From Oscillospiraceae bacterium (GTDB lineage Bacteria; Bacillota; Clostridia; Oscillospirales; Oscillospiraceae), in the NCBI GenBank assembly GCA_017409205.1, contig JAFQTF010000026.1, positions 1,275-65,274 of the forward strand: a stretch of DNA of 64,000 nt, in the 5' to 3' direction. Positions 52,629-60,423 of the stretch are shown piece by piece. Position numbers and translations under genes: made by a program. The notes below the pieces were generated by a model. It ran no database searches. It was not told the origin of the DNA and saw nothing but the letters and a program-made list of their open reading frames with translations. Numbering within the stretch: position 1 is the stretch's first letter; each line of letters begins with the position of its first letter.

Positions 52629-53009
52629 ATGAGCGCCACGGGCTACATACAGGTTCGTGCCTACGAAAGCTACGCCCAGATCCCACTGGAGGATGTGGCC
52701 ATCGCCATCACAGCTGCCGACGGCACCGCCATTGCCATGGGACTGACCAACCGGAACGGCAGAATAGAACCGGTGGAAATTCCGGTTCCGGATCTGGCGG
52801 ACAGTCAGACACCGGATCCGCCGGAACGGCCCTATGCCACGGTGAATCTTTATGCCCATTTACGTGGCTATGAACAGGTGGAGGCCGAAGATCTGCAGGT
52901 ATTTCCGGGCATCACAACGCTTCAGGAGCTGCAGATGATCCCCCTGTCAGAGCTACCCGGAGCATGGAATCAGAGCGCGTTCTTTGATACGCCGCCCCAG
53001 AATCTATAG
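52629..53009 (+). CDS. Stand-alone SleC N-terminal pre/pro-like domain
   Basis: G.IQV..IP..V.I..TN.NG...P....SQ.P..RPY....GY......QVFPG.T..Q...MIP pattern resembling the SleC N-terminus (recalled, not searched); AAGGAGG RBS. Confidence 0.75.
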   Translation: MSATGYIQVRAYESYAQIPLEDVAIAITAADGTAIAMGLTNRNGRIEPVEIPVPDLADSQTPDPPERPYATVNLYAHLRGYEQVEAEDLQVFPGITTLQELQMIPLSELPGAWNQSAFFDTPPQNL

Positions 53010-53019
53010 GAGGTATGCC

Positions 53020-54246
53020 ATGCCGCCAGTCATTCCCACCATTCCCCAGCGGATCACGGTGCATCTTGGGCCGCCCAATTCCGATGCGGAAAATGTCACT
53101 GTGGATTTTGTCGATTACGTAAAAAATGTTGCATCCAGCGAAATATATCCCACATGGGAGGAAAGCGCCCTGCGGGCCAATATCTACGCCATTGTCTCCT
53201 TCGCCCTGAACCGGGTATACACCGAGTGGTACCGCAGCCGGGGATACGACTTTGATATTACCAATTCCACTGCATACGACCAATATTTTGTCAAAGGCCG
53301 GAGTTATTTTGACAGCATCGTCCGGATCGCAGATGCGCTGTTCAACGATTATCTCCGGCGGCCTGGTTTTGTGGAACCTCTGGCAGCCAAATTCTGCAAC
53401 GGCACCACCGCAACCTGCGAAGGCCTGAGCCAGTGGGGCAGTCAGAATCTGGCACTGCAAGGCTACAACACCACCCAGATCATCCGCAGCTACTACGGGA
53501 ATGTGGAGATCGTCAGCAATGCGCCCGTAGCAGGCATTACCAGCTCCTATCCCGGTAGACTGCTGCGCCGGGGCACCACAGGCCCCGGCGTGGTGACCAT
53601 CCAGACAGAGCTGAACCGCATCTCCCAGAGCTATCCCGCCATCCCCAAAGTCAATCCGGTGGATGGGATCTTCGGAGCCAAAACAGAAGCCTCCGTCCGG
53701 AAATTTCAGGAGATATTCGGGCTTGAAACAGACGGCATCGTAGGGCCCGCCACCTGGTATGCCCTGGTGCGGCTGTATGTGGCAGTCAATTCCCTGGCAG
53801 AGCTGCGCAGTCAGGGCCAGCGATTCTATGCCAACTCCTGGGCAACCAGCGATCCCATCGAATTCGGCGACCGGGGTATCAAGGTGGAGCATCTGCAGTA
53901 TATGCTGTCTGTACTGGCTGCCTACATTCCCCAGATCCCCAGGCTGCAGGTGGATGGTATTTTCGGGCCTGCCACCAGAAGCGCCGTCATTGCAGCGCAG
54001 CAACGGTTTGGCCTGCCTGAGACCGGTATTGTCAATTACGATACCTGGGACGAAATATACGACCAGTTTTCCGGCATCGAAACAAGTGCCTGGCGTGATC
54101 CGCAGGATTTCCCCTATACCAATGCCATTCTGACCGGAACGCCCCCCAGAGCCCGGTATGCCGGAACCACGACCATGACCCAGTTCCCCGGAAGCGACCT
54201 GTCCGCGGGTAATCAGGACCCTGTTCGTCAGGAGGTGGTGCGATGA
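53020..54246 (+). CDS. sleC: SleC-like spore cortex-lytic enzyme (SpoIID/LytB catalytic domain plus peptidoglycan-binding domains)
   Basis: YVKNVASSEIYPTW, ALNRVYTEWYR, TNSTAYDQ, LSQWGS; two PG_binding_1 repeats (DGIFG..T). Confidence 0.88.
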   Translation: MPPVIPTIPQRITVHLGPPNSDAENVTVDFVDYVKNVASSEIYPTWEESALRANIYAIVSFALNRVYTEWYRSRGYDFDITNSTAYDQYFVKGRSYFDSIVRIADALFNDYLRRPGFVEPLAAKFCNGTTATCEGLSQWGSQNLALQGYNTTQIIRSYYGNVEIVSNAPVAGITSSYPGRLLRRGTTGPGVVTIQTELNRISQSYPAIPKVNPVDGIFGAKTEASVRKFQEIFGLETDGIVGPATWYALVRLYVAVNSLAELRSQGQRFYANSWATSDPIEFGDRGIKVEHLQYMLSVLAAYIPQIPRLQVDGIFGPATRSAVIAAQQRFGLPETGIVNYDTWDEIYDQFSGIETSAWRDPQDFPYTNAILTGTPPRARYAGTTTMTQFPGSDLSAGNQDPVRQEVVR

Positions 54247-54776
54247 GGCCCCAGGAGTCCTTTATCGGTCAGCCCATCCGCAGTCTGCAGACCATGCTGC
54301 GGGCCATCGCAGAGGAAGATCCGGGTTACCGGCAGATTGTTCCTGACGGCATTTACGGCCCGGAAACCGTTTCCGCTGTCACGGTCTTCCAGAAGCGGCA
54401 CGGTCTGCCTGCCACAGGCATAACAGACCAGGCCACCTGGGAGGCTGTTGCCGCCCGGTATGAACCTGCAAGGATCAGCCGGGCGCATGCCCATCCCCTG
54501 CATATCCTGCTGAATCCCGGTCAGATCCTGCGACGGGGAGAACGGCATCCACACCTGTATCTTGTGCAGGGTATGCTGACTGCCCTGGCAGAGGCTTACG
54601 GCAGCATCCCATCGCCGGCGGCTACCGGTATTCTGGATGATGCAACTGCCGACGCACTGGCGGCTTTTCAGCAGCTGAGCCGTCTTCCCATGACCGGCCA
54701 TCTGGATAAAGTGACGTGGAAACACCTGGCACTGCAATATCCGCTGGCAGCAGAGGTATTGATATCCATCGGATAA
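54243..54776 (+). CDS. Peptidoglycan-binding domain protein
   Basis: Two PG_binding_1 repeats (DGIYGPET..AV..FQ...GLP.TG). Confidence 0.85.
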   Translation: MRPQESFIGQPIRSLQTMLRAIAEEDPGYRQIVPDGIYGPETVSAVTVFQKRHGLPATGITDQATWEAVAARYEPARISRAHAHPLHILLNPGQILRRGERHPHLYLVQGMLTALAEAYGSIPSPAATGILDDATADALAAFQQLSRLPMTGHLDKVTWKHLALQYPLAAEVLISIG

Positions 54777-57303: not shown

Positions 57304-57797
57304 AGCATTTCCTCCAGATCCGCCTGCCGCAAAATACGGCAGGCCTTTATTTTTCCATTTTCCACTTCCATCAGTCCGGCGCTGCCCCCGCCATAGCCGC
57401 AGGAGCCGGGATTCAGGACCCAAAGGCCGTCCTCCTCCTGCCGACAGTCAGCCACATGGGTATGCCCGTACAGCGCCGCCTGCGCCCGGCAGGCCCGGGC
57501 ATCCCGCAGAAGGGTCCCCAGATACATTTTTACATTGTGCTTATGACCGTGGGTCATGTACAGCTCCACACCGCAGACACGATGGCACAAAATCTCCGGA
57601 ACATGGGGTGGACAGCGGTAGCGGTCACAGTTTCCCGGTACCTGAAAGAAAGAGATGTGGGGATAGTCCTCTTTCAGTGCTTCACCGTCATCGTAATAGT
57701 CACCCAGATGTATGATGGCATCCGGCTTCACCGCATCCACACAGTCATACATGAACCGCAGGGCGGAATGAGAATCCGATAATACAAGAATTTTCAT
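57300..57797 (-). CDS. YfcE-type metallophosphoesterase
   Basis: SDSH, HLGD, GNCD, THGH, GHTH, NPGS. Confidence 0.92.
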   Translation of the reverse strand: MKILVLSDSHSALRFMYDCVDAVKPDAIIHLGDYYDDGEALKEDYPHISFFQVPGNCDRYRCPPHVPEILCHRVCGVELYMTHGHKHNVKMYLGTLLRDARACRAQAALYGHTHVADCRQEEDGLWVLNPGSCGYGGGSAGLMEVENGKIKACRILRQADLEEML

Positions 57798-57856: not shown

Positions 57857-58735
57857 CTACTGTTCCTCCCGGTTTTCCAGAGTCACTTCCCGGAAAAATT
57901 TCCGTTTTTCCGAGGGGGTGCAGCCATAGATCTCCTTGAAATACTGGCTGAGCATCTTCTGGTCCTTAAATCCGTGGCGTTCAGCGATCTCACTGATGGG
58001 ATCCTCACTGATCTCCAGCTCCCGACAGACAGCGGTTGCCCGGACCTGATACAGATACTGCAGATAGCTGACACCCATATTCTTTTTGAACAGGCGGCAG
58101 AAATACTCCTTGTTCAGTCCCATTTCCCCACAGGCCCAGTCCAGAGAAAGCTCTTCGCTGTGGTTCAGCTGGATCTGCTCCAGAAGAGGCTCCAGACGCT
58201 GCATATCGCTGCGCTGCAGACTCCGCTCCTCCACCGGCATGGCCTGCGAAAAATATTTCACCAGAATGGCGGCGGCAGCAAAAAGCCGGGACTGCTGCTC
58301 CAGCCGGTAGGCCTGGGGATTTTCCTTCGTCTGACGGAGGATCTCCTGCATGTGCACCATCAGCTGGGCATAGGCATTGGCCTTTGTCTGATCCTCAGGA
58401 TCAAAGGCAAGAGAGAACTGCAGCTGATCAAACTCCGGTACATACAGGCACATCCGGCTGGGCAGGATGTGGACACACAGATATACCGCATCCCGGCTGC
58501 ACCGGGTCTCGTGCACCTCATGAGAGTTGATAAGATACAGATCGCCAGGCTTGGCGCGAAGGGTCGAATTTTCAAACTTGCAAGTAACCGTACCCTTGAC
58601 GAACAGCAGAAGCTCGATGGCCTGGTGCCAGTGGGGCGGCGTATAGGCGCTGAGACGGTTTTCATACTTGATTCCAAAGCCGGTCTGGTCCAGATCAGCC
58701 AGGAGCTTATGTTGGTAGTTTTGCACAATAAACAC
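57857..58735 (-). CDS. AraC family transcriptional regulator (cupin sensor plus double HTH)
   Basis: PHWH..IEL cupin domain; YFCRLFKK..G, IAERHGF...FKEIYGCTP HTH region. Confidence 0.93.
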   Translation of the reverse strand: MFIVQNYQHKLLADLDQTGFGIKYENRLSAYTPPHWHQAIELLLFVKGTVTCKFENSTLRAKPGDLYLINSHEVHETRCSRDAVYLCVHILPSRMCLYVPEFDQLQFSLAFDPEDQTKANAYAQLMVHMQEILRQTKENPQAYRLEQQSRLFAAAAILVKYFSQAMPVEERSLQRSDMQRLEPLLEQIQLNHSEELSLDWACGEMGLNKEYFCRLFKKNMGVSYLQYLYQVRATAVCRELEISEDPISEIAERHGFKDQKMLSQYFKEIYGCTPSEKRKFFREVTLENREEQ

Positions 58736-58800
58736 CCTTTTTTCGAACTTTTCAGATTCACAATTCGTTCACAAAGTCAATATCTTCCTAATCTAAGTCA

Positions 58801-58839
58801 ATTATACCACTTTTTGCCCCCAAGTCAAGGTGCTATAAT
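58801..58839. promoter_or_regulatory. Back-to-back overlapping sigmaA promoters (araC-like gene / micropeptide operon)
   Basis: Minus: TTGACT-16-TATAAT with extended -10 (58828-58801); plus: TGCTATAAT at 58831-58839 with no good -35. Confidence 0.65.
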
Positions 58840-58943
58840 ACCCCCACTTCGCAGGACAGCCCAACATGCTGCGCCATGCAAGTTCAATTTACAAAAAATT
58901 CACGAACGTTCTGTTCGCCCTATAGAAAAGGAGGTATTTGACT

Positions 58944-59039
58944 ATGTCCATGAAGGAATCCGTAAAGAACTACTTCAAAGAAGTTATGGTCGAATGCGGC
59001 CGTATCATCGAGATGGATGGCCGCATCTGCCACATGTAA
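58944..59039 (+). CDS. Micropeptide 1, 31 aa: MSMKESVKNYFKEVMVECGRIIEMDGRICHM (not in ORF track)
   Basis: AAAAGGAGGT RBS; gap-free similarity to micropeptide 3. Confidence 0.75.
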   Translation: MSMKESVKNYFKEVMVECGRIIEMDGRICHM

Positions 59040-59082
59040 TGCACCGTCCGTTCACCCCGCGCCAGTAAAGGAGGTTATCCCG

Positions 59083-59175
59083 ATGGCTAAACTGTACTAC
59101 GAAAAGCATGGCTATCCCGATGTTCTGGTGGAAATGAGCCTGATCACCGGCCTGCGCCAGTGCACCATGCTGTAA
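59083..59175 (+). CDS. Micropeptide 2, 30 aa: MAKLYYEKHGYPDVLVEMSLITGLRQCTML (not in ORF track)
   Basis: AAAGGAGGT RBS with normal spacing. Confidence 0.7.
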   Translation: MAKLYYEKHGYPDVLVEMSLITGLRQCTML

Positions 59176-59203
59176 ATTTGCTTTTGCCCTTTGGAGGTAT
59201 GAT

Positions 59204-59290
59204 ATGAATATCATCAAAAATTATTTCTCACCCGTCCGTCCCGGCAATGATGTGATCCGGGAACTGCAGGGCCGCGTTCTGTGGTTCTGA
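59204..59290 (+). CDS. Micropeptide 3, 28 aa: MNIIKNYFSPVRPGNDVIRELQGRVLWF (not in ORF track)
   Basis: GGAGGT RBS; shares KNYF...E[ML]xGR with micropeptide 1. Confidence 0.75.
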   Translation: MNIIKNYFSPVRPGNDVIRELQGRVLWF

Positions 59291-59326
59291 TAAACTCTGC
59301 AACACACATTTCAGGAGGTTATTTTT

Positions 59327-59410
59327 ATGAATAAGACTTTTATGAAGGCTTTTACTGCTATTTCCAAGGCCCAGCGTACCTGGGAACTGCACGAAAACGG
59401 CACTTTCTAA
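59327..59410 (+). CDS. Micropeptide 4, 27 aa: MNKTFMKAFTAISKAQRTWELHENGTF (not in ORF track)
   Basis: AGGAGGT RBS; followed directly by the operon terminator. Confidence 0.7.
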   Translation: MNKTFMKAFTAISKAQRTWELHENGTF

Positions 59411-59415
59411 ATTTC

Positions 59416-59449
59416 AAAAGGCTGTCCGCTCCGGCGGGCAGCTTTTTTT
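59416..59449 (+). terminator. Intrinsic terminator closing the micropeptide operon
   Basis: gctgtccgc-tccg-gcgggcagc followed by 7 T. Confidence 0.85.
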
Positions 59450-59451
59450 GC

Positions 59452-59480
59452 GCACAATCACCGGCGGCAGCACATATACT
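59452..59480 (+). promoter_or_regulatory. Putative sigmaK/sigmaE promoter
   Basis: GCACA-16-CATATACT. Confidence 0.55.
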
Positions 59481-59518: not shown

Positions 59519-59749
59519 ATGTCCGACTTTGATCGTGCCTTGCAGGAGGCCCTGCGCCTCTCCGGTACGCCCGAGGGAAAGCAGCTTGTTTCCATGCTGC
59601 AGCAGCTGGGCGGCGGCGACCTTCAGCAGACCCTTGACCGGGCTTCCGCCGGGGATCTGCATCAGGCACAGCAGCTGATCTCCTCCCTGATGCGCAATCC
59701 CCAGGCACGTCAGCTTTTACAGCAGCTGGGAGGAAGCTATGGAAAATGA
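59519..59749 (+). CDS. Hypothetical Gln/Leu-rich helical protein
   Basis: First of three coupled ORFs after a mother-cell-type promoter. Confidence 0.7.
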   Translation: MSDFDRALQEALRLSGTPEGKQLVSMLQQLGGGDLQQTLDRASAGDLHQAQQLISSLMRNPQARQLLQQLGGSYGK

Positions 59750-60077
59750 ACTGGAAGAAAAGCTGAGCTCCATCCTCAGCGATCCGGAAATGATGGGAAA
59801 GATCCAGGCCATGGCCCAGTCTCTGGGACAGAATATCCCCGCTCAGCCGGAAGAAAATCAGCCCGCCATCGATACCGGCATGCTGCGTAAGCTTTCCGGC
59901 TTGGCGACGCAGTCCGGCATTGATCAGAATCAGCAGGCTCTTCTTTCTGCACTGATGCCCTACCTCAGCCGGGATCGGGTAGGCAAACTGGAAAATGCCA
60001 TGCGGGCAGCAAAATTGGCAAAGCTGGCCTCCGGATTTCTGGGCAGCGGCGCACTTCAGGCCCTGACCGGGAGGTGA
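59739..60077 (+). CDS. Hypothetical protein (probably spore-associated)
   Basis: ILSDPE.M.KI...A.SL and LLSALMPYLS..R..KL..A pattern; GGAGG RBS. Confidence 0.72.
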   Translation: MENELEEKLSSILSDPEMMGKIQAMAQSLGQNIPAQPEENQPAIDTGMLRKLSGLATQSGIDQNQQALLSALMPYLSRDRVGKLENAMRAAKLAKLASGFLGSGALQALTGR

Positions 60078-60081
60078 GATC

Positions 60082-60423
60082 ATGTATAACCGCTATGTTC
60101 CCCAGTCCGATGGTACTTATCAGCGCAGGCGGGTCCCGGAGACGATCCCGCCACCCAGACCAGCCCCAGCATCCGCTGCCCCGGAAGCTGTTCCCTACCC
60201 GGTTCCGGAACCCCCGAAGCATCCGGTCCCGCCGAGACGCCCCCGGCCCGGAAGACCCCGGCAGGAGCCGGAGAGCATCGCATCCTTTCTGCGGCAACTG
60301 CTGCCCAGAGATTTTGACACCGGTGATCTGCTGGTGGTTGTGCTTCTGCTGCTGATGTCCGGTAATGACCGGGAGGATCAGAATACAGCACTGCTGACTT
60401 TGGCGCTTTACCTGTTTATGTGA
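60082..60423 (+). CDS. Hypothetical Pro-rich protein (probably spore-associated)
   Basis: MYNRY start, Pro-rich linker, DTGDLLVVVLLLL C-terminal motif; GGAGGTG RBS. Confidence 0.7.
   Translation: MYNRYVPQSDGTYQRRRVPETIPPPRPAPASAAPEAVPYPVPEPPKHPVPPRRPRPGRPRQEPESIASFLRQLLPRDFDTGDLLVVVLLLLMSGNDREDQNTALLTLALYLFM

Follow-up and report, generated by a model that had tools for sequence, protein, structure and literature searches.

What are four reading frames of about thirty codons in the gap beside an AraC-family regulator gene, and do they form one system with it? The first-pass annotation of the window (the whole 64,000-nucleotide stretch of DNA that was analysed) had described them as a four-micropeptide cassette divergent from the regulator. 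The frames are located on the plus strand and encode peptides of 31 (ORF1, 58944-59039), 30 (ORF2, 59083-59175), 28 (ORF3, 59204-59290) and 27 residues (ORF4, 59327-59410), with a GGAGGT Shine-Dalgarno (SD) sequence ending 8, 7, 5 and 7 nt before the ATG of ORF1 to ORF4, respectively. Their transcript is predicted to start from an extended -10 element (TGCTATAAT, 58831-58839, plus strand) that was recognized by sequence, lacks a -35 consensus at the usual spacing and is absent from the two-hexamer promoter list of the promoter scan. It would end at an intrinsic terminator (59416-59449, plus strand), a hairpin with a U-run whose folding energy of -23.5 kcal/mol (z -5.7) was matched by 0 of 200 shuffles. 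Between promoter and ORF1 lies a 5' leader of ~95 nt (58845-58937, plus strand) with two hairpins that are kept in the genus; the consensus fold of 17 leaders contains 12 pairs, 6 of which show two-sided change, with a weak covariation term. The annotation had located the ORFs, SD sequences, -10 element and terminator correctly, and its remark that the promoter has no good -35 holds, as does its argument that four ribosome-binding sites ahead of such ORFs are improbable by chance. Dinucleotide shuffling of 58846-59449 yielded four GGAGG-led ORFs (15-50 aa) in 0 of 5,000 shuffles, with a maximum of three reached once, and a loose SD pattern yielded four such ORFs in 6 of 5,000. The cassette is also the sole cluster of more than two among the 188 GGAGG-led ATG ORFs of 18-40 aa in this genome (1.76 Mb, 76.6% complete).

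The head-to-head gene (57857-58735, minus strand) encodes a protein of 292 aa with an N-terminal cupin sensor domain and a C-terminal double helix-turn-helix (HTH). Its earlier assignment to the AraC family is confirmed by Pfam, where PF12833 (70.4 bits) and PF02311 (51.2 bits) both score above cut-off and PF07883 is also matched; in NCBIfam no named family reaches cut-off for it. The AlphaFold model of the regulator (pLDDT 82.8) has ToxT, CsvR, Rns, AraC and BgaR as its nearest folds (10-17% identity), and no close relative was found among solved structures. The double HTH (PF12833/PF00165), the N-terminal cupin ligand domain and the ToxT, Rns and AraC folds together place it in the AraC/XylS family. 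Translation possibly starts at a GTG at 58726 instead of at 58735, as an SD-like AGGGTG stands 6 nt before this codon and the alignments of relatives begin there. Within the cupin domain, residues H35, W36, H37, E41, H75 and H89 do not vary among 40 homologs, which we take to be consistent with an intact pocket. Co-folding of the regulator with ORF1 gave a score of 0.01, a value that speaks neither for nor against binding. No relative of the regulator was found in viral contigs and the only one found on plasmids shares 26% identity, so no link to a mobile element was found.

When 61 genomes were searched at the DNA level, 28 gave matches, all of them within the genus (Faecousia, Oscillospiraceae, to which all genus counts given here refer). 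The regulator was detected at E<=1e-90 in 20 of 301 Faecousia genomes, and all 20 carry 1-8 divergent SD-led ORFs, mostly of 21-31 aa, a count that includes some arrays ending at contig ends and one ORF with a premature stop. Many array ORFs are tandem near-copies, and the arrays of relatives likewise end in terminator-like hairpins. The proposed cassette is thus real and linked to the AraC gene; its four members are not a fixed feature, as both their number and their sequences change between species. At 20 of the 22 loci without this AraC, a metallophosphoesterase gene directly adjoins the 76-aa gene that follows the array in the window (the remaining 2 lack one of the markers), which argues that AraC, promoter, ORFs and terminator came as one block. 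The insertion site is located between the phosphoesterase gene and a putative spore operon of three unnamed genes (76, 112 and 113 aa; 59519-60423, plus strand) that are conserved in the genus and belong to no Pfam or NCBIfam family. A promoter-like sequence ahead of these genes (59452-59479) contains a conserved ACA-N-CATA that, in our judgement, resembles a mother-cell sigma-K/E promoter; the three genes are likely a spore operon that is independent of the cassette.

Other features of the surroundings deserve mention. Between the pantothenate kinase and phosphoesterase genes, the plus strand carries a conserved SD-led ORF of ~52-57 aa whose product has a YPNAA motif and a C-terminus of hydrophobic character (window region ~57348-57506; L001:75-233, with homologs at L005, L006, L011, L018 and L028). 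Farther upstream, three adjacent plus-strand genes (52629-54776), the middle one encoding peptidoglycan-binding domains (PF01471), presumably resemble a spore cortex-lytic enzyme locus. Within the Faecousia arrays there is a second peptide type, not present in the window, that carries the motif [RK]GLSTxR; its amino acids are kept and its changes are synonymous (L054, L055, L056, L057, L061, L063, L065, L066, L070, L071, L073, L077, L080, L089 and L141). This peptide has a strong SD at some loci (L071, L077 and L141); at others its ORF has no clear SD, spans the SD of the next ORF and ends at or just past its start, with the stop codon at L056 overlapping the next ATG. Translation of the last ORF may be coupled to, or gated by, the [RK]GLSTxR peptide. 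Further array peptide types are unrelated to the main family, each being conserved in several species: an MKDFA-type (L033, L034, L036 and L043), an acidic type ending in YNL (L035 and L089) and an IPTSIV-type (L049, L050 and L144).

The main peptide family of the genus has the consensus MxKxxxKxxLxxxMxxYGExL. ORF1 is a member, as it scores 21.5 bits against a family HMM built with it left out (0 of 2,000 shuffles as good); the scores of ORF2, ORF3 and ORF4 against the broad family HMM are not significant (948, 264 and 335 of 2,000 shuffles as good). A subfamily profile of seven sequences identifies ORF3 as a diverged member of the ORF1 subfamily (7.3 bits, 0 of 3,000 shuffles; DNA score 0 of 300 codon shuffles), and ORF2 and ORF4 again remain below significance (218 and 253 of 3,000 shuffles as good). 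ORF2 is therefore not placed in the family, and the tail of ORF4 is probably common to family-type peptides; on one low-depth contig, a family-type stretch is joined to a 33-nt match of this tail. The Faecousia profile gave two marginal matches in 400 genomes of the bacterial family, neither an SD-led small ORF, and a genome scan with a single peptide sequence found nothing.

The micro-ORFs of the relatives evolve as proteins under purifying selection. A dN/dS below 1 had been named as a check, and the ratio is 0.195 (pS 0.283, pN 0.066) over 31 disjoint nearest pairs of relatives' ORFs, which were chosen by similarity, were aligned as proteins, and include a few non-family ORFs and none of the four in the window; by side, it is 0.23 for Oscillospiraceae and 0.17 for Lachnospiraceae loci. 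Intact variants of ORF1 (P0189) and ORF2 (P0191 and P0193) are present in the protein collection, and among the strain differences listed from four gut metagenomes, those at 59151 in ORF2 and 59386 in ORF4 are synonymous by codon reading. An inter-ORF GGGCTGTCCACC element was considered as an RNA hairpin and discarded, as its codons are conserved and its folding energy varies from -1.3 to -16. ORF1 is predicted to form a single helix (residues 3-29, pLDDT 84). Averaged hydrophobicity peaks at 100 degrees in both peptide groups (68 and 39 motif-anchored rows), a family-level signal, with only 17% of 135 peptides singly exceeding their own shuffles in amphipathicity at p<0.05. The median charge of these 135 peptides is +2 and 7 of them contain a TM-like stretch; the window peptides, with a best 17-residue Kyte-Doolittle mean of 1.19, have no TM helix, as originally described.

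Database searches give the peptides no name. No significant Pfam, NCBIfam or PHROGs family was found for any peptide tested, apart from one stray Rpn9_C match in 1 of 33, and no Rfam family reaches threshold, the only match being a sub-threshold one of the S15 leader. The ESM Atlas contains no usable match for ORF1, and the best matches of a Roseburia peptide (0.86) are unnamed clusters. A full-text literature search found nothing on this system, and the initial impression that it is not a described one stands, as no family or paper was matched; catalogues may list such peptides as unnamed families. Human-gut members may, for example, stand as unnamed families in the small-protein catalogue that Sberro and colleagues reportedly assembled in 2019.

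What ties the peptides to the regulator is a predicted operator (58773-58811, plus strand) composed of the tandem half-sites AAAGTCAATATCTTC (58773-58787) and AAGTCAAT (58795-58802). The half-sites of this GTCAAT box are 21 bp apart and are positioned at about -72 to -35 relative to the predicted peptide start site. AraC/XylS activators bind tandem half-sites ~21 bp apart beside the -35 region of the target promoter, and the geometry predicted here follows that arrangement. The box AAWGTCAATWTYNNC and a second half-site 21 bp on are conserved in both Oscillospiraceae and Lachnospiraceae. At 76 of 90 sites the distance from the box to the following -10 element is 58 bp, and no -35 consensus lies between them; because a GTCAA pattern served to collect the sites, the core of the box is fixed by construction and its spacing is not. 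In this genome the box is the top PWM match (33.1 versus 14.4). The combination of box and -10 occurs once here and once in each of 5 of 5 complete genus genomes (>=90% complete), whereas a sample of 400 genomes from across the class contains none. The araC gene has its own sigma-A-type promoter, TTGACT-16-TG-TATAAT (58828-58801, minus strand; 11 of 12 consensus matches), which overlaps the peptide promoter and is kept in peptide-less relatives. On this promoter, 37 of 41 close loci could be anchored: the peptide-bearing ones have kept the -10 in 32 of 32 cases and the exact first box in 31 of 32, and in the peptide-less ones the first box and the -10 are both gone in 5 of 5, the araC promoter staying. 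These five loci fall into two clades of a quick tree and hence represent about two or more loss events, not five. Control by AraC, part of the original proposal, is thereby supported at the level of sequence, by an operator-like box that is conserved and is lost together with the peptides.

The box is not merely the -35 of araC, a candidate explanation that was rejected because the Lachnospiraceae araC promoter lies apart from the box and the box also occurs without araC. In genome G1267 the AraC gene is unlinked and two distant boxes are each found upstream of a family-like peptide gene, so the operator also leads to further peptide genes in trans. In G1289 and G1267 the first box additionally stands before a gmd-fcl operon (GDP-fucose synthesis) whose neighbouring AraC is a different one (22% identity), and the box is thus not exclusive to the peptide module. 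At these loci (L238, G1289:C38; L252, G1267:C28) the operon has its own divergent, distantly related AraC, and either the motif is simply shared or surface-glycan genes are cross-regulated. One-mismatch copies of the box occur before sugar genes or inside genes, and the box-1-only matches inside genes (4 of 6 loci examined) are chance.

The module extends well beyond Faecousia. Scans with the AraC profile returned 80 genome and 80 metagenome loci, in which identity to the regulator is 53% in Onthomonas, 41% in an unnamed Clostridiales and 28-35% in Roseburia, Blautia, Eubacterium, Hungatella and Petralouisia. The box and a first divergent ORF of <=60 aa are present at 127 of 148 loci with enough upstream DNA, many of the 127 being near-identical Roseburia copies. 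After clustering of the AraC proteins at 95% identity, a micro-ORF accompanies 73 of 87 clusters by script and ~73 of 84 by hand, the correction reflecting three clusters short of upstream DNA, two peptides at L078 and a probably spurious ORF at L121. Regulator, box, -10, SD-led ORFs and terminator are therefore co-conserved in Oscillospiraceae and Lachnospiraceae in unrelated chromosomal neighbourhoods; among the 28 loci listed, no third gene is conserved across genera and the neighbours differ between genera. The Lachnospiraceae peptides form a family of their own (32-47 aa, a few up to 65), with one peptide at most loci, and an hhalign probability of only 13% gives no support for homology with the Faecousia family; across all loci the peptides measure 21-47 aa, with a few up to 65. 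A profile of the Lachnospiraceae family matched 76 proteins, 0 of which have a Pfam family or an informative name, the Roseburia hominis member being the hypothetical protein RHOM_02745. In a search from the peptide side of 301 Lachnospiraceae-family genomes, 12 gave matches; 9 of the 12 matches are SD-led ORFs, with a box at 9 of 9 and an adjacent AraC gene at 7 of 9, and the remaining 3 lack both box and AraC. The type of peptide follows the AraC clade.

Some relatives have kept the regulator and lost the peptides. At six metagenome loci (L135, L136, L137, L139, L142 and L143) AraC is intact (68-73% identity), and the five of them that could be anchored have also lost the first box and the -10, which suggests that AraC has other work or that the peptides are elsewhere. 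Peptide-less AraC relatives at L090, L126 and L263 face a GH3 gene, a CitMHS-family permease gene or GH5 and GH43 genes, a weak hint of a carbohydrate-type ligand. L126 retains the box and -10, and there a cytidylate-kinase-like gene comes after the first divergent gene, which encodes a CitMHS/ArsB-family permease of 452 aa; in its sister clade (L093, L094, L096, L101 and L113) a peptide precedes the same kind of kinase-like gene. As proof of a transporter target L126 fails, since a second promoter-like sequence lies between the box and the permease gene. At L210, a Roseburia-type locus, an HTH gene and two ORFs of unknown function replace the peptide and box upstream of AraC.

From these data we propose, at about even confidence, that AraC switches on amphipathic-helix micropeptides that act in trans on a membrane-associated host protein. 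In this self-contained cassette, AraC would likely bind the tandem operator and likely activate the short micro-ORF transcript. The box is very probably the binding site of this AraC. Binding there probably activates the -35-less peptide promoter and dampens the overlapping araC promoter, autorepression being suggested by the second half-site, which overlaps the araC -10. An extended -10 might function without an activator, in which case AraC could also act as a repressor. The intact cupin pocket may well bind a small metabolite as the signal, possibly a carbohydrate. The peptides stand a roughly equal chance of being, or not being, intracellular effectors that dock on a membrane-associated protein, with duplication in Faecousia setting dose and spreading target range; effectors of the AzuC/SgrT kind are the best match for short amphipathic helices that are nearly neutral and lack export genes, and the predicted target would be a transporter or membrane-bound enzyme. 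Peptide types replace one another quickly, which is hard to square with a single conserved target. In most genomes examined AraC has no predicted target besides the peptides, which are therefore likely its output, not a brake on it. The first-pass annotation had also suggested that the peptides are precursors processed in trans, which is unsupported, as the alignments contain no conserved cleavage motif and no modifying gene is conserved nearby. We suggest more tentatively, at somewhat less than even confidence, that the module represents an undescribed one-component class, an AraC regulon made entirely of micropeptides, ranging from one peptide in Roseburia and Blautia to a rapidly evolving library of <=8 helices in Faecousia, with at least five unrelated types and possible translational gating by the [RK]GLSTxR peptide; if this is true, an AraC sensor responds to a gut metabolite by directly producing small-protein effectors as a tunable set.

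Other explanations of the locus were weighed against this proposal. That the frames are decaying or chance ORFs in an intergenic gap is extremely improbable and already largely refuted: although ORF2 and ORF4 have no significant family score, the first ORF of L040 has a premature stop and the array was lost in several lineages, the shuffle test, a dN/dS of 0.2, the intact variants and, among the strain differences listed, the synonymous changes at 59151 and 59386 all argue against it. A short transcript with its own predicted promoter and terminator and two leader hairpins conserved in the genus might instead belong to a dual-function RNA, which would pair with mRNAs in addition to encoding the peptides. 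Ten such RNAs are reported in PMC12310071, and judged by the usual description (a short transcript with a translated ORF of <50 aa) the module combines coding selection in relatives with a transcript that is predicted. We nevertheless consider base-pairing very unlikely, as selection acts on amino acids, the spacers and 3' region vary freely between species, and the inter-ORF element is conserved as codons and not as a hairpin.

Several ORFs of similar size that share one transcript and each have an SD, the helical amphipathy without a signal peptide, and the duplication and rapid diversification of the peptides would also be expected of exported or surface-active helices, akin to PSMs or multi-peptide leaderless bacteriocins, whose exporter is encoded elsewhere. 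We regard this as unlikely. The window peptides have net charges of 0, 0, +2 and +2 and GRAVY values of -0.59 to +0.13, as compared to +4 to +5 and +0.53 to +0.71 for aureocin A70 as described in PMC6131525; there is no Pfam or NCBIfam bacteriocin or PSM match, and most Lachnospiraceae loci have a single peptide. No exporter or immunity gene is conserved nearby, in line with the annotation's remark that no modifying enzyme or exporter is adjacent, the flanks consisting of the phosphoesterase gene and the three unnamed small genes and varying between genera. The annotation had further raised the possibility that the peptides inhibit AraC itself, as anti-activators in an ANR-like negative feedback, and that peptide types follow AraC clades agrees with it, as does the description in PMC4038620 of ANRs of 39-80 aa, some encoded divergently beside their own AraC gene. 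As a main role this is distinctly unlikely. Both in this genome and in 5 of 5 complete genus genomes, AraC has no predicted target other than the peptides, so that a pure feedback loop would be left without output, and inhibition of one protein needs no arrays of <=8 diverged peptides. Moreover, ANRs are described with three predicted helices and a conserved cysteine (PMC4038620), and ORF1 has one predicted helix.

The proposed reading, in which AraC controls micropeptide effectors, bears on gut Firmicutes more generally, where small proteins are mostly orphans without regulator or context; here regulator, predicted operator and peptides come as one unit. Should the peptides be the output, micropeptides would make up most of this AraC regulon. 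Cultured carriers include Roseburia hominis (RHOM_02745), Blautia hansenii and Eubacterium sp. 14-2 (C805_03584), and the Faecousia arrays display small-gene birth, duplication and loss at a single locus.

Among known systems, a small peptide gene divergent from its regulator is typical of Rgg/SHP and other RRNPP pairs; unlike these, the regulator here is an AraC and not of TPR type, and the peptides show neither a signal peptide nor a conserved processed tail. The PSM-alpha operon of Staphylococcus aureus is similar in that four short amphipathic helices (20-25 aa), each with a ribosome-binding site and none with a signal peptide, are encoded on one transcript under one direct activator, but PSMs are AgrA-controlled cytolysins exported by the Pmt ABC system (PMC6428751) and have no sequence match here. 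Compared with the amphipathic helices of 20-25 or 40-45 aa that define PSMs, the peptides have the periodicity at the family level, differ in length and lack a Pfam match. Rows of three or four leaderless ~30-aa peptides are also described for aureocin A70 (four peptides, 30-31 aa), garvicin KS and the cereucins (PMC6131525), and the window contains such a row, whose number is 1-8 in relatives; leaderless bacteriocins are, however, strongly cationic and lie beside conserved genetic determinants, neither of which is true of the module. The ANR family (Aar/orf60) comprises small proteins encoded near, and sometimes divergently from, the AraC gene controlling them (PMC4038620). ANRs belong to Gram-negative genera and their AraCs have large regulons, whereas here the window ORFs measure 27-31 aa, lack an invariant cysteine, have no Pfam or NCBIfam match and are the main predicted target. 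The closest parallels to the proposed mode of action are small effectors of 28-43 aa that act on GlpD and PtsG (PMC8915982, PMC12310071). AzuC of E. coli is a 28-aa amphipathic helix made from a short transcript that binds the membrane-associated enzyme GlpD (PMC8915982); the Roseburia peptide had an AzuC cluster among its matches (rank 19, score 0.81), which is no more than a lead, and the Pfam copy searched, which may be without PF28150, gave no AzuC match. Unlike the module described here, AzuC is CRP-repressed, has a single ORF and is limited to enteric bacteria. SgrT, a small protein of 43 aa encoded on the short SgrS transcript, acts on the transporter PtsG (PMC12310071, PMC8915982), and the enterobacterial SgrR-SgrS/SgrT system likewise places a sensor regulator beside a short transcript encoding a small protein; it differs in its regulator family and has no sequence match, and the present module has <=8 ORFs, is found in Firmicutes and is not known to act by base-pairing. 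The wider AraC-micropeptide module is thus real, under selection and undescribed, and it works like known pairs of regulator and small protein while being a member of none of those tested.
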